NCBI GenBank assembly: GCA_021683455.1
Contig: GCA_021683455.1_3051.1
Origin: a phage
Strand: one strand, 5' to 3'
DNA: 64,000 nt
The notes under the pieces were generated by a model. That model was not told the origin of the DNA and made no database searches. It saw only the letters and a list, made by a program, of their open reading frames with translations. This document shows positions 42,122 through 47,459 of this stretch, piece after piece; position 1 is the stretch's first letter, and each line of letters begins with the position of its first letter. The position numbers and the translations under genes are program-made.

Positions 42122-43630
42122 ATGGATATTAAAGTACATTTTCACGACTTCAGTCATGTACGCATCGATTGTGAAGAGAGCACGTTCCACGAATTAAGAG
42201 ATTTCTTTTCGTTTGAGGCCGATGGATATAGATTTAACCCTCGCTTCAGATATGGCAACTGGGATGGACGAATCCGTCTTTTAGATTATAATCGCCTTCT
42301 TCCATTCGGCTTAGTCGGGCAAATTAAAAAGTTCTGTGATAACTTTGGCTATAAAGCCTGGATTGACCCACAAATTAACGAAAAAGAAGAATTATCAAGA
42401 AAAGATTTTGATGAATGGCTTTCTAAATTAGAAATCTATTCAGGAAATAAAAGAATTGAACCACACTGGTATCAAAAAGATGCAGTGTTCGAAGGATTAG
42501 TTAATCGTCGTAGAATTCTTAATCTTCCAACATCTGCAGGTAAATCTTTAATTCAGGCTCTGCTTGCGCGATATTATTTGGAAAATTATGAAGGTAAAAT
42601 TCTTATCATTGTTCCAACAACTGCTCTAACAACTCAGATGGCTGATGATTTCGTTGACTATCGTTTATTCAGTCATGCAATGATAAAGAAAATCGGTGGT
42701 GGAGCATCAAAAGATGATAAATATAAAAATGATGCACCAGTCGTTGTTGGTACATGGCAAACTGTAGTAAAACAACCAAAAGAATGGTTCTCACAGTTTG
42801 GAATGATGATGAATGATGAATGTCATCTTGCTACAGGAAAAAGTATTTCATCTATCATATCAGGTTTAAATAACTGTATGTTCAAATTTGGTCTATCTGG
42901 TTCATTACGTGATGGCAAAGCCAATATCATGCAGTATGTTGGAATGTTTGGCGAAATATTTAAGCCAGTAACGACTTCTAAGTTAATGGAAGATGGACAA
43001 GTAACTGAGCTAAAAATTAATAGTATTTTTCTTCGTTATCCTGATGAGTTCACTACTAAATTAAAGGGAAAAACTTACCAAGAAGAAATAAAAATTATTA
43101 CGGGGCTTAGTAAAAGAAATAAATGGATCGCTAAATTAGCTATTAAGCTTGCGCAAAAAGATGAAAACGCTTTTGTCATGTTTAAACATGTATCGCACGG
43201 TAAAGCTATTTTCGATTTAATTAAAAATGAATACGATAAAGTTTATTACGTATCAGGGGAAGTTGATACCGAAACCCGCAATATAATGAAAACCTTAGCT
43301 GAAAATGGTAAAGGAATAATTATAGTAGCTAGTTATGGTGTATTTTCTACTGGTATTTCAGTTAAAAATCTGCATCACGTTGTTTTAGCGCACGGTGTTA
43401 AATCAAAAATCATTGTATTACAAACAATCGGTCGTGTATTACGTAAGCATGGTTCTAAGACAATAGCAACTGTCTGGGACCTCATAGATGACGCGGGCGT
43501 AGTTTCTAAATCAAAAACATCTTCTAAAAAATACTCGCATTTAAACTATCTTTTAAAACATGGACTTGATCGTATTCAGCGTTATGCTGATGAAAAGTTT
43601 AATTATGTGATGAAAGAGGTTAAACTTTGA
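42122..43630 (+). CDS. uvsW: UvsW, DNA/RNA helicase (branch migration, 502 aa)
   Basis: Walker A TSAGKSL and DECH box (MNDECH); size as T4 UvsW. Confidence 0.9.
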   Translation: MDIKVHFHDFSHVRIDCEESTFHELRDFFSFEADGYRFNPRFRYGNWDGRIRLLDYNRLLPFGLVGQIKKFCDNFGYKAWIDPQINEKEELSRKDFDEWLSKLEIYSGNKRIEPHWYQKDAVFEGLVNRRRILNLPTSAGKSLIQALLARYYLENYEGKILIIVPTTALTTQMADDFVDYRLFSHAMIKKIGGGASKDDKYKNDAPVVVGTWQTVVKQPKEWFSQFGMMMNDECHLATGKSISSIISGLNNCMFKFGLSGSLRDGKANIMQYVGMFGEIFKPVTTSKLMEDGQVTELKINSIFLRYPDEFTTKLKGKTYQEEIKIITGLSKRNKWIAKLAIKLAQKDENAFVMFKHVSHGKAIFDLIKNEYDKVYYVSGEVDTETRNIMKTLAENGKGIIIVASYGVFSTGISVKNLHHVVLAHGVKSKIIVLQTIGRVLRKHGSKTIATVWDLIDDAGVVSKSKTSSKKYSHLNYLLKHGLDRIQRYADEKFNYVMKEVKL

Positions 43631-44319
43631 ATTATAAATTAATATATGATAATTTAATTAATAGAGCCCAGAATCGGGCTCGCCTTAATGGATACACTGA
43701 AACACATCATATAATTCCTAGATGTATGGGTGGTACAAATGATAAGTGTAATTTAGTAGAACTAACGGCTGAAGAACATTTTATAGCCCATAAACTTTTA
43801 GCTAAAATTCATCCAAACCATTACGGTATAATTAAAGCTGTTATATGTATGGGGATGAATTCAAATACTCATGAAAGACATGTTAATAAATCTTACGCAT
43901 GGGAACGTCGTAAAATGGCAGAACTTCAATCCGGCGAAGGTAATCCATTTTACGGAAAACACCATACGGAAGAACATAAACAATATATGTCAAAACTCAT
44001 GAAAAGTCGTCCAATTACATGGGGAAATAAAATTAGTAAAACTAAAAGAATGAACCCAACGAAATGGACTGAAGAAGCTAAAAGATTACATTCAATCAAT
44101 CAATCGGGTAAAAATAACGGCATGTATGGAAGGAAACATTCTGCTAAATCTATTCAGAAAATTAAAGATAACATGCCAGATAATTCAGGAGCTAATAACC
44201 CAGCTGCTAAACCTATAGAAGTAAATGGTGTTAAATATAAATGTATGAAAGATGCTTCTAAAGCTACTGGATTATCAATGTACAAACTAAGAATACTTAG
44301 AAAAACAGTTAATTTATAA
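43627..44319 (+). mobile_element. Free-standing HNH homing endonuclease with NUMOD-like repeats, inserted after uvsW (230 aa)
   Basis: HNH motif ETHHIIPRCMGGTNDKCNLVELTAEEH; repeats NPFYGKHHTEEHK and NGMYGRKHSAKS; TTG start with AAGAGG SD overlapping the uvsW stop. Confidence 0.75.
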
Positions 44320-44332
44320 GGGCTTCGGCCCT

Positions 44333-44578
44333 TTGGAGAAAAAGATGTTACTAGAATTTAAACAATTTCTTTATGAAGCTTCTATTGATGAATTTATGGG
44401 TAAAATTGCCTCTTGTCAAACATTAGAAGGTTTAGAAGAACTTGAAGCTTATTATAAGAAAAGAGTCAAAGAAACTGAATTAAAAGATACTGATGACATC
44501 TCTGTGAGAGATGCTTTGGCAGGAAAAAGAGCTGAATTAGAAGATTCAGACGATGATGAAGTAGAAGAAAGCTTTTAA
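44333..44578 (+). CDS. uvsW.1: UvsW.1-like small acidic protein (81 aa)
   Basis: Small acidic ORF downstream of uvsW; position matches T4 uvsW.1. Confidence 0.55.
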   Translation: MEKKMLLEFKQFLYEASIDEFMGKIASCQTLEGLEELEAYYKKRVKETELKDTDDISVRDALAGKRAELEDSDDDEVEESF

Positions 44579-44633
44579 ATTAAAAAAGGCCCAACCGAAA
44601 AGGAAGGGCCAAAACTATAGACTAAAGGTCACA

Positions 44634-44801
44634 CTATAGCAAAAGTTGTGTTTCATTTAATTGTTCTTCCGAACTTTCTGAAACTGGTAGTTCTTTAATG
44701 TAATTATAGCAAGGCCCAGGATGTACAGGACCTTTGTCTGTTTCAACAACCAATGCAGAATCGATTGGAGTTTTACAGACAACACAAATCTTATCTGACA
44801 T
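44634..44801 (-). CDS. Small ORF (55 aa) with three Cys, uvsY.-1 position; below the track's length cut-off
   Basis: ATG preceded by GAGGAG SD; reads MSDKICVVCKTP.. to TAG; in operon position upstream of uvsY. Confidence 0.4.
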   Translation of the reverse strand: MSDKICVVCKTPIDSALVVETDKGPVHPGPCYNYIKELPVSESSEEQLNETQLLL

Positions 44802-44924
44802 GATTGTCTCCTCTGAATTATATATCTATTTATAACCCCATCTTAAAGCGCATTTCTTGTACACGCTTTAAACATGCTTCCATTTCTGCTAAAAGTCTAA
44901 ATACTTCTTTATAATTTGTCATAT

Positions 44925-45152
44925 TTACCCCATATCTCTCATATGCATATCAATGCCCATATCTTTAGAATAAAAATATTCATCAAGATATCCGGCAAAT
45001 TTTCCTTTAATATAAAGGACATCTTCACCACACGGGTGGTCGGCCAGGATACGAATATCCTGACGCTTAAGATTATGCTTTTTCATTAAGAATTGAATTT
45101 CCGTTTCAAATTCTTCTTCATAATTAAAAGCATCATCAATGCTATATCTCAT
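44925..45152 (-). CDS. Hypothetical protein (75 aa), uvsY.-2 position
   Basis: ORF abutting the uvsY start. Confidence 0.55.
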   Translation of the reverse strand: MRYSIDDAFNYEEEFETEIQFLMKKHNLKRQDIRILADHPCGEDVLYIKGKFAGYLDEYFYSKDMGIDMHMRDMG

Positions 45153-45565
45153 TATTTTCCAGCCTCAAATGCTCGCATGTCTTGAATATGCTTAATAGCA
45201 AATCCACGTGATTTAATAGCATCAAGAGCTCCGCTACAGAAATCCAATAAAATCCCCCAATATTGTAACGAGGTATCAACCTTTAAAACATCCTTATCAG
45301 CTGATAGAACTGTTTTCATTTCTGATTTCTCGTAACGATCCATACTAAATTCATCACCATCTCCTCGTCCCGAGTAGTAATCTAATTTAGCTTTAAGAGC
45401 AACTTTTTTCTGTGCTTCAATTCTAAGCATTTCCTTTTTAATACTTGAATGCTTATTAAGCCATTTACTATATAACATCACATTATTAGCTGCTTCATAC
45501 TGTAATTTAGTCGAATCTATAAACACATCTTTCTTCAATTCTTCTTGAAGATCTTCTAATCTCAT
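45152..45565 (-). CDS. uvsY: UvsY, recombination mediator protein (137 aa)
   Basis: 137 aa as T4 UvsY; begins MRLEDLQEELKKDV; synteny. Confidence 0.9.
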   Translation of the reverse strand: MRLEDLQEELKKDVFIDSTKLQYEAANNVMLYSKWLNKHSSIKKEMLRIEAQKKVALKAKLDYYSGRGDGDEFSMDRYEKSEMKTVLSADKDVLKVDTSLQYWGILLDFCSGALDAIKSRGFAIKHIQDMRAFEAGK

Positions 45566-45631: not shown

Positions 45632-46030
45632 TTATACCCTATTACTGGAAGCCAGTTGCAGTTTTATCTGCTCAATATCATCAGGGTTATCGATGACTGA
45701 AAAGCGTATTTCTACTATCAGAGTATAATCATCATAAACGGGTATCACATTAACTGCTAATTTATCAATACGTGGCTCATAGTTTCTTACTGCGCTTTCA
45801 ATGTTACGCTCAACCGTGTCAGCAGTAAGAGGAGTCATATTCTCAAAAAGTTGGTCAGATAAATCACATCCAAATTCAGGGTCAAACGGTCTTGAACCTT
45901 TTCTTGTTGTAATAATTCCTAAAAGACTATTTTTAATTGACCTTAATCCAAGTGATCTTGAAACGTCTTTGTTCCAATCCATTTTCATCTCTGGGTCAAT
46001 ATCAGAATAAAGCTTATTAATATTTGCCAT
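45632..46030 (-). CDS. 25: gp25, baseplate wedge subunit (132 aa)
   Basis: Size identical to T4 gp25; synteny 25-26 divergent from 51. Confidence 0.9.
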   Translation of the reverse strand: MANINKLYSDIDPEMKMDWNKDVSRSLGLRSIKNSLLGIITTRKGSRPFDPEFGCDLSDQLFENMTPLTADTVERNIESAVRNYEPRIDKLAVNVIPVYDDYTLIVEIRFSVIDNPDDIEQIKLQLASSNRV

Positions 46031-46656
46031 TACAATAGCTCAAAGAATTCTTTGAGTCCTCTTATTACATGAGCGTGAGTTTTTCCACACTCTGGACATT
46101 TAATTGGAACAGCCAAATAAACAGTAGGCTTTAAAAGCATATCTTTTATAGCTACAATATCTGACTCTGTGATGATAGAATATAAATCTTCCAATTCTTT
46201 TTCATTTAAGTCTTCAACTGGAATGCTTTCCCCGTTAGCGTGAATCGTTTCTATACATGATACTATCATGTGGGCTATATTTTTATCATCAAAAATTTTA
46301 GGGTAATGGAATTTAATTTTAATGTCACCCAGTGTATACCAGAGGTCTTCTGGTGCATCTATTTGTGTATGTAATAGATTTATATGGGTTGGTATTTCAG
46401 TTCCACAGGTGCACTTCCAGGAGTTTTCGTGATTAACTTCACCAAGAGAATGTGCCCATAAATGAATCAATAATAGTTCTGATTCTTGGCGGTTTAAATC
46501 TTTTGCATTTGTACAGTCTTTGATTAGCTTTTTAACAATTGCTTCTACAGAACCATTATTTTTGGCAGTAATAAGTTCTAGATATTCTTTAAGCGTGAAT
46601 GCGCGACAATTGATTATTTTAGAACCAACTCTCACATCAAATTTGTATTCATACAT
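46030..46656 (-). CDS. 26: gp26, baseplate hub subunit (208 aa)
   Basis: Size identical to T4 gp26; synteny. Confidence 0.85.
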
Positions 46657-46706: not shown

Positions 46707-47459
46707 ATGGCAAACATTATTCGTTGTAAATTACCAGATGGTGTTCATCGTTTTAAACCATTTACGGTAGAAGATTATCGAGATTTTTTGTTAGTTCGAA
46801 ACGATATAGAACATCGGTCACCACAAGAACAAAAAGAAGTAATTGCTGATTTAATTGCTGATTATTTTGGAGACTATCCAAAGACTTGGCAACCATTTAT
46901 ATTTTTGCAGGTATTTGTAGGTTCAATAGGTAAAACTAAAGTACCAGTCACATTTGTATGTCCAAAATGTAAAAAAGAAAAGACAATTCCATTTGAAATA
47001 TATCAAAAAGAATTAAAGGAACCTATTTTTGATGTAGCTAATGTTAAAATTAAATTAAATTTTCCTTCTGAGTTTTATGAAAATAAAGCAAAGATGATTA
47101 CTGAAAATATTCATTCTGTTCAAGTAGATGAAATGTGGTATGATTGGAAGGAAATTAGTGAATCAAGTCAAATAGAACTTGTTGACGCCATCGAGATAGA
47201 AACATTAGAAAAAATTCTCGATGCAATGAATCCTATTAATTTAACATTGCACATGTCGTGTTGTGATAAGTACATTAAAAAATACACTGATATAGTAGAT
47301 GTGTTTAAGCTATTAGTTAATCCAGATGAGATATTTACTTTTTATCAAATTAATCACACGCTTGTAAAAAGTAATTATAGCTTAAATTCAATAATGAAAA
47401 TGATTCCTGCCGAGCGCGGATTCGTATTAAAACTGATTGAGAAGGATAAACATCAATGA
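46707..47459 (+). CDS. 51: gp51, baseplate hub assembly catalyst (250 aa)
   Basis: Size as T4 gp51 (249 aa); synteny. Confidence 0.85.

Follow-up and report, generated by a model that had tools for sequence, protein, structure and literature searches.

The window, i.e., the whole stretch of phage DNA that was analyzed (64,000 nucleotides), carries a minus-strand ORF at positions 44634..44801. The ORF was recovered by listing reading frames of at least 25 aa and runs for 55 codons from an ATG to a TAG (44634..44636), with the translation MSDKICVVCKTPIDSALVVETDKGPVHPGPCYNYIKELPVSESSEEQLNETQLLL. A Shine-Dalgarno (SD) sequence, GAGGAG, is located on the minus strand at 44808..44813, and the 6-nt spacer ACAATC separates it from the ATG. 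The ORF is absent from the ORF track because it is shorter than 60 aa, the default floor of the ORF lister. An initial annotation of the window had described a 55-aa minus-strand ORF with a strong GAGGAG SD and three Cys residues (CVVC..C) that was missing from the track through a cut-off of about 60 aa. Each of these observations was correct, with the SD, read along the transcript, at 44813..44808 and 6 nt ahead of the ATG, and the Cys residues at positions 6, 9, and 31.

On the plus strand, the T4 gene uvsW (42122..43630; recognized from the ORF listing and Pfam/PHROG matches) is followed by a 230-aa ORF (43627..44319) and by uvsW.1 (44333..44578; Pfam UvsW-1, E=6e-29), which is the convergent neighbour of the 55-aa ORF. 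On the minus strand, the 55-aa ORF is preceded by a 30-aa ORF (44830..44922), by a 75-aa ORF (44925..45152) that is the ortholog of uvsY.-1 (phrog_1541, E=2e-46; so annotated in PP01 and T4), and by uvsY (45152..45565), which encodes the recombination mediator. T4 genes 25, 26, and 51 are also found near the ORF in the window. The 55-aa ORF had been placed upstream of uvsY, in the position of T4 uvsY.-1. Neither placement held: uvsY is the upstream gene in the same transcription direction, so that the ORF is downstream of it, and the ORF corresponds to uvsY.-2, the uvsY.-1 position being taken by the 75-aa ORF.

The translated ORF is identical at 55/55 aa to bacteriophage T4 uvsY.-2 (NP_049797.1; UniProt Q00778, Y11A_BPT4), and its DNA is identical at 168/168 nt to T4 positions 114496..114663, with flanks that are likewise identical. 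The Pfam family PF10886 (DUF2685) matched with 119 bits against a cut-off of 25 (E=9.3e-35) in a full-length alignment of ORF residues 3-55 to profile positions 1-55. The PHROG search returned phrog_1043 (E=3.9e-31) and phrog_26998 only; phrog_1541 was not among the matches. T4 UvsY.-1 (NP_049798.1; PHROG 1541) is similar in being encoded by a small same-strand ORF downstream of uvsY, but it is unrelated to UvsY.-2, having 75 aa, one Cys, and no CxxC, and occurring in 12/50 of the related loci described below compared with 50/50 for UvsY.-2. The equivalent ORF is labelled uvsY.-2 in the T4 reference, PP01, AR1, Acj9, and wV7 records, and a 1.3-kb query around the ORF matched 751 phage records, 498 of them at ≥95% identity. 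By these comparisons, the ORF is, as near to certainty as such matches allow, both a real gene and the sequence-identical ortholog of T4 uvsY.-2. The gene is already known: T4 and hundreds of relatives carry it as an annotated gene, and it has its own Pfam family. The novelty implied by the initial annotation therefore does not hold. New here is the suggestion that this known gene encodes a CCHC knuckle and a C-terminal docking peptide.

Searches of other resources added little. No match for UvsY.-2 was obtained from NCBIfam or from PADLOC, whose library consists of defence, not anti-defence, proteins. The single-sequence PDB search gave chance or low-complexity matches alone (lysostaphin repeats, Mlc), and the BFVD fold search gave only uncharacterized members of the protein's own family. 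Literature searches by the DUF2685 name and by accession-type identifiers returned nothing relevant; uvsY.-2 was found named in the text of only two papers.

The gene is the last of a minus-strand unit with the order 26-25-uvsY-uvsY.-1-(30-aa ORF)-uvsY.-2, and the gene order around it matches that of T4 and PP01. Between the window and T4, there is no difference in the sequence, length, SD, late-promoter motif, or terminator of uvsY.-2, and in both it is placed between uvsY.-1 and the convergent uvsW/uvsW.1. T4 differs in lacking two insertions found in the window, namely, a segment of ~95 bp with the 30-aa ORF between uvsY.-1 and uvsY.-2, and a homing endonuclease ORF between uvsW and uvsW.1. 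Fifty related loci with uvsY.-2 were compared, including those of Krischvirus, Schizotequatrovirus, Tulanevirus, and Acinetobacter phages. The gene is the last on its strand in all 50 loci. It is convergent with uvsW in 49/50, the exception being a truncated contig, and it is accompanied by genes 25/26 in 48/50, by adjacent uvsY in 45/50, by uvsW.1 in 44/50, and by uvsY.-1 in 12/50. In two Schizotequatrovirus-type loci (L004 and L050), uvsY and uvsW adjoin uvsY.-2, and genes 25/26 are not adjacent.

The 30-aa ORF in the ~95-bp segment has the translation MTNYKEVFRLLAEMEACLKRVQEMRFKMGL and corresponds to hypothetical protein PP01_190 of phage PP01 (phrog_12503, E=8e-9). Besides the window, it was present in only 2 of the 50 related loci, and its segment is missing from T4.

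Signals for transcription and translation were located on both sides of the gene. The octamer TATAAATA, a perfect match to the T4 late-promoter consensus, is found on the minus strand at 44827..44834. Its distance to the ATG is 25 nt here and 23 nt in T4, where the motif is the same. From established T4 knowledge, we take this motif to be a putative late promoter here. It occurs 25 times in the window compared with 9.7 expected matches. A perfect copy precedes uvsY.-2 in just 16 of the 50 related contexts; in other genera, transcription presumably reaches the gene by read-through from promoters farther upstream. An SD-like core precedes the gene in 49/50 contexts, often as the near-identical GGAGACAATC-ATG, and the string GGAGACAAT is kept in 32/50. 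Downstream of the stop codon, an intrinsic terminator for the uvsY.-2 transcript was identified on the minus strand at 44582..44610, consisting of a GGCCC-N13-GGGCC hairpin (44610..44588) followed by U6 (44587..44582). The hairpin folds as RNA with -19.8 kcal/mol (z=-4.7) and is oriented for the uvsY.-2 transcript, since its plus-strand side is followed by AAAAC. A consensus terminator scan missed it because the loop is longer than 8 nt; in the wV7 record, the corresponding position on this strand is annotated as a rho-independent terminator.

The initiation string GGAGACAAT(C)-ATG (window 44802..44813, minus strand) is almost unchanged in those 32 contexts, which span genera between which the ORF is saturated at its synonymous sites. 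That the spacer is conserved along with the SD may point to an additional constraint on these nucleotides, e.g., translational control or RNA structure.

The distribution of the gene was determined using tblastn, by which 1,252 phage records were found to encode UvsY.-2. The hosts of these phages include Escherichia, Klebsiella, Shigella, Acinetobacter, Vibrio, Aeromonas, and others. For comparison, gp32 is encoded in 2,406 records, cyanophages included, and UvsY.-2 is therefore quasi-core in Straboviridae but not present in all T4-like phages. It is among the few wholly uncharacterized T4 genes to be retained in essentially every T4-like phage other than the cyanophages. An exhaustive profile search gave 58 cluster representatives at 50% identity, nearly all of 51-66 aa. 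Among 40 distinct coding sequences from the 50 loci, the median dN/dS was 0.17 (264 pairs), and the window and one related locus (L012) differ in uvsY.-2 by 13 synonymous and 4 nonsynonymous substitutions. Judged from these codon comparisons, uvsY.-2 is under purifying selection. In many of the 50 loci, UvsY.-2 is better conserved than its neighbours UvsY, gp25, gp26, or UvsW.

Published T4 datasets show that the protein is made and that its loss is felt. In a time-resolved T4 proteome, Q00778 was undetected early and reached ~1e9 LFQ late, and it was classed as "middle RNA, late protein" (PMC9697503 supplements). UvsW has the same late appearance and a similar abundance in this proteome, and gp25, gp26, and gp51 also have late protein kinetics (PMC9697503). 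In a CRISPRi-ART screen, dCas13d guides directed at the uvsY.-2 ribosome-binding site gave a "Semi-Fit" score, and the knock-down was complemented in trans by sfGFP-linker-UvsY.-2; knock-downs of uvsW, uvsY, and uvsY.-1 were scored "Not Fit" in the same screen (PMC11879866). uvsY.-2 is thus a genuine gene: conserved, selected, translated, late-accumulating, and with a measurable fitness effect. The initial annotation had proposed conservation of the frame in relatives and a signal of translation as checks, and both came out in its favour, the first through the 1,252 phage records and purifying selection and the second through the SD in 49/50 contexts and the detection of the protein by mass spectrometry in T4.

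Several database entries for longer forms of the protein were set aside. A 126-aa "fusion" (P0030, phrog_26998) looks like upstream read-in or a frame error, not a domain fusion, and the longer forms P0001, P0003, P0019, P0025, and P0026 are likewise probably upstream read-ins or frame errors and uninformative. P0003, recorded as [quoted passage not shown] shares 98% identity with T4 UvsY.-2. Its source is almost certainly DNA of a T4-like phage that contaminated a bacterial assembly, and not a bacterial homolog.

The N-terminal part of the protein was examined in an alignment of 53 diverse UvsY.-2 members that are 36-72% identical to the query. Residues C6, C9, G29, C31, and E42 are invariant, and K10, G24, V26, and H27 are conserved in at least 90% of members. 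The resulting ligand pattern is C-x2-C-K-x16-18-H-x-G-x-C, and the query has the spacing CxxC-x17-H-x3-C of a CCHC site; all four ligands of a single-zinc CCHC site are therefore conserved at knuckle spacing throughout the 53-sequence alignment. AlphaFold2 run on the family alignment gave a mean pLDDT of 78.7. Block-mean pLDDT was ~82-89 over residues 1-38, where a knuckle, short beta strands, and a helix at residues 30-37 were predicted, and confidence was low (pLDDT 56-66) over residues 40-55. The top fold matches of the model were nearly all zinc fingers, mostly treble-clef, with scores below significance, and included the LIM first finger, eL24, YacG, C1, FYVE, HIT, and CsfB (weak). The family profile gave one marginal match in the PDB, the Vps39 C-terminal zinc finger (6ze9, E=0.003). 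Residues 1-38 are thus likely, on the basis of the model, to form a treble-clef knuckle/beta-hairpin/short helix unit around one CCHC zinc site (C6, C9, H27, and C31). The earlier suggestion of a small metal-binding protein was based on the three Cys residues, which proved invariant; it had overlooked the near-invariant H27, and the predicted zinc knuckle agrees with it, while metal binding itself is something that we infer from these features.

Known single-zinc fingers offer a comparison. The LIM first finger, eL24/TRASH, YacG, HIT, and C1 have in common with UvsY.-2 the spacing C-x2-C-x17-H-x3-C and the predicted knuckle, hairpin, and short helix. This likeness to single-zinc treble-clef fingers would be one of fold class, by analogy, and would not make UvsY.-2 a member of these families. 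A LIM domain needs two fingers, whereas UvsY.-2 has ligands for one. Membership of the LIM family (PF00412) was accordingly rejected, as only one finger's ligands are present and Pfam gives DUF2685 alone down to E=1.

The remainder of the protein is an acidic tail. All UvsY.-2 members are acidic, with net charges of -2 to -9 (mean -5.7), and K10 is the sole strongly conserved basic residue of the family; the protein should be a poor binder of nucleic acid for these two reasons. All members end with the motif [LV]-x-E-[TVI]-x-L-L-[LMI], 0-2 residues from the C-terminus; ahead of it come a conserved (S/T)-E-(S/N) and a run of acidic residues. Such a fixed position at the C-terminus suggests a docking peptide. 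The UvsY.-2 tail was considered as a sliding-clamp motif, on the lines of E. coli beta "QL[SD]LF" or the aromatic gp45-binding tails of T4 gp43, gp33, and gp55, and was rejected as one, as Q52 is not conserved and family tails are almost devoid of aromatic residues.

Some likeness was seen to the T4 gp32 A-domain tail and the E. coli SSB-Ct. T4 gp32 ends with SSSSADDTDLDDLLNDL and UvsY.-2 with SESSEEQLNETQLLL. As in these tails, UvsY.-2 has a Ser-rich and then acidic stretch, with a terminal Leu-Leu. The registers of the motifs differ, however, being [DE]-L-[DN]-x-L-L in gp32 and L-x-E-[TV]-x-L-L in UvsY.-2, and UvsY.-2 is without the OB fold of the ssDNA-binding proteins. Membership of the gp32-type docking tails was not accepted, since the composition and the terminal LL are common to both but the motif register is not. 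According to a passage in PMC10391720, which cites Perumal et al. 2013, UvsW, gp59, and gp41 need the gp32 acidic C-tail for interaction.

The gp32 tails compared were those of T4, AB-Navy1, PC-Liy1, GomatiRiver_11, G2494, KpF2, and S-RIM12 (L051-L057). The C-terminal pattern [DE]-L-[DN]-x-L-L-x(0-2)-[LM] was found in 5 of the 6 Straboviridae genera examined; in the Vibrio gp32 tail, a longer extension comes after the core motif. The gp32 of cyanophage S-RIM12 lacks the terminal motif, and this cyanophage also lacks UvsY.-2. In the published Dda-gp32 structure, gp32 residues 248-270 are involved, not the terminal motif.

The overall best explanation of the locus, with a probability of about 0.6, is that this gene, T4 uvsY.-2, encodes a small acidic zinc-finger protein that serves as a protein-binding adaptor. 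Going by its conserved sequence features, UvsY.-2 probably acts as an adaptor or regulator through the finger and the C-terminal peptide. In this mechanism, the zinc finger and the disordered acidic tail would bind another protein, not nucleic acid, and the partner would come from the late DNA recombination/replication machinery, with UvsW/UvsW.1, UvsY, and other proteins that bind acidic tails as candidates. That UvsY.-2 has its partner in this machinery, whose genes surround its own, is a tentative proposal with less than even odds. It is based on the association of uvsY.-2 with uvsW (49/50), uvsW.1 (44/50), and uvsY (45/50), including in the Schizotequatrovirus loci, and on the late kinetics and abundance common to UvsW and UvsY.-2. 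Against it, the linkage to uvsW is convergent, and the two genes are therefore not co-transcribed; neighbourhood is also weak evidence because T4-like synteny is conserved in general. A role purely as a cofactor for UvsW or UvsY does not explain the phenotype, as knock-downs of these two were "Not Fit" and that of uvsY.-2 "Semi-Fit."

In a more specific form of the adaptor model, the tail would imitate gp32, with its Leu-Leu peptide docking on the UvsW helicase, or on gp59/gp41, and, once docked, UvsY.-2 would modulate the late transition to recombination-dependent replication. Drawn by analogy to gp32, such docking on UvsW, gp59, or gp41 is a speculative and improbable version of the model. 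If it were true, UvsY.-2 would be a previously unrecognized quasi-core part of the T4 recombination machinery. As a product of the scan, the ORF is of low value, being an annotated T4 gene hidden by the 60-aa floor of the track; the gene itself is mildly interesting for its conservation, its late synthesis, and its complementable fitness effect.

Among the alternatives to a protein-binding adaptor, a host-directed inhibitor or counter-defence protein survives best, though it is rather unlikely. Such a protein would block a host protein, as YacG does gyrase and CsfB a sigma factor, or would neutralize a defence system. Small acidic phage proteins are often inhibitors, YacG and CsfB are among the weak fold matches of UvsY.-2, and the uvsY.-2 knock-down has a stronger phenotype than the uvsW or uvsY knock-downs. 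Counter-defence genes are usually variable, accessory, and early; uvsY.-2, however, is a quasi-core gene with strict synteny and strong purifying selection in phages of Escherichia, Klebsiella, Acinetobacter, Aeromonas, and Vibrio, and its product accumulates late. In the publication on the fitness screen, uvsY.-2 is named as one of the uncharacterized genes that may indicate "host-encoded defense system inhibition" (PMC11879866).

A late morphogenesis factor that helps the hub/wedge proteins of the baseplate (gp25, gp26, and gp51) to assemble, as a cofactor or a small chaperone, would account for the location of uvsY.-2 on the same strand and downstream of 26-25 in 48/50 loci, for its own late-promoter consensus in T4-type phages, and for late kinetics like those of gp25, gp26, and gp51. 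Retention of uvsY.-2 with uvsY and uvsW in L004 and L050, where 25/26 are not adjacent, argues against this role, as does the presence of the non-structural uvsY between uvsY.-2 and gene 25 in most genomes, and the role is considered quite unlikely.

Zinc fingers often bind nucleic acids, and the UvsY.-2 finger could in principle regulate the transcription or translation of neighbouring genes. This was judged very improbable, given that every family member is acidic (-2 to -9) with one strongly conserved basic residue (K10), leaving UvsY.-2 without a basic surface for a polyanion. This AT-rich DNA contains many overlapping chance ORFs of 25-57 aa, but that the uvsY.-2 frame is one of them and not a gene is refuted by the Pfam match (E=9e-35), the dN/dS of 0.17, the detection by mass spectrometry, and the fitness effect complemented in trans.

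Some further features of the neighbourhood were recorded. The TTG start of the 230-aa ORF overlaps the uvsW stop, and the ORF has an N-terminal HNH-like motif, NUMOD3 motifs (PF07460, E=8e-14), and a weak match to TIGR01453 (group I intron endonuclease). These motifs mark it as a free-standing homing endonuclease, one that the T4 reference does not have. At this site, it was found in only 4 of the 50 related loci, of which two carry near-identical copies and two are Acinetobacter-phage loci. The latter represent one genome (Acj9), with 43% identity and a similar place. In T4 (NC_000866, 112677..114440; L002), uvsW is one 587-aa CDS with a sequence-discrepancy note; the window and most relatives have a 502-aa UvsW and a separate UvsW.1 of about 77-81 aa. 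Among the hub proteins, gp26 (46030..46656, minus strand) has paired Cys residues (C-T-C-G ... C-P-E-C-G), and gp51 (46707..47459, plus strand) has C-P-K-C-K-K; both are zinc-ribbon-like by eye.
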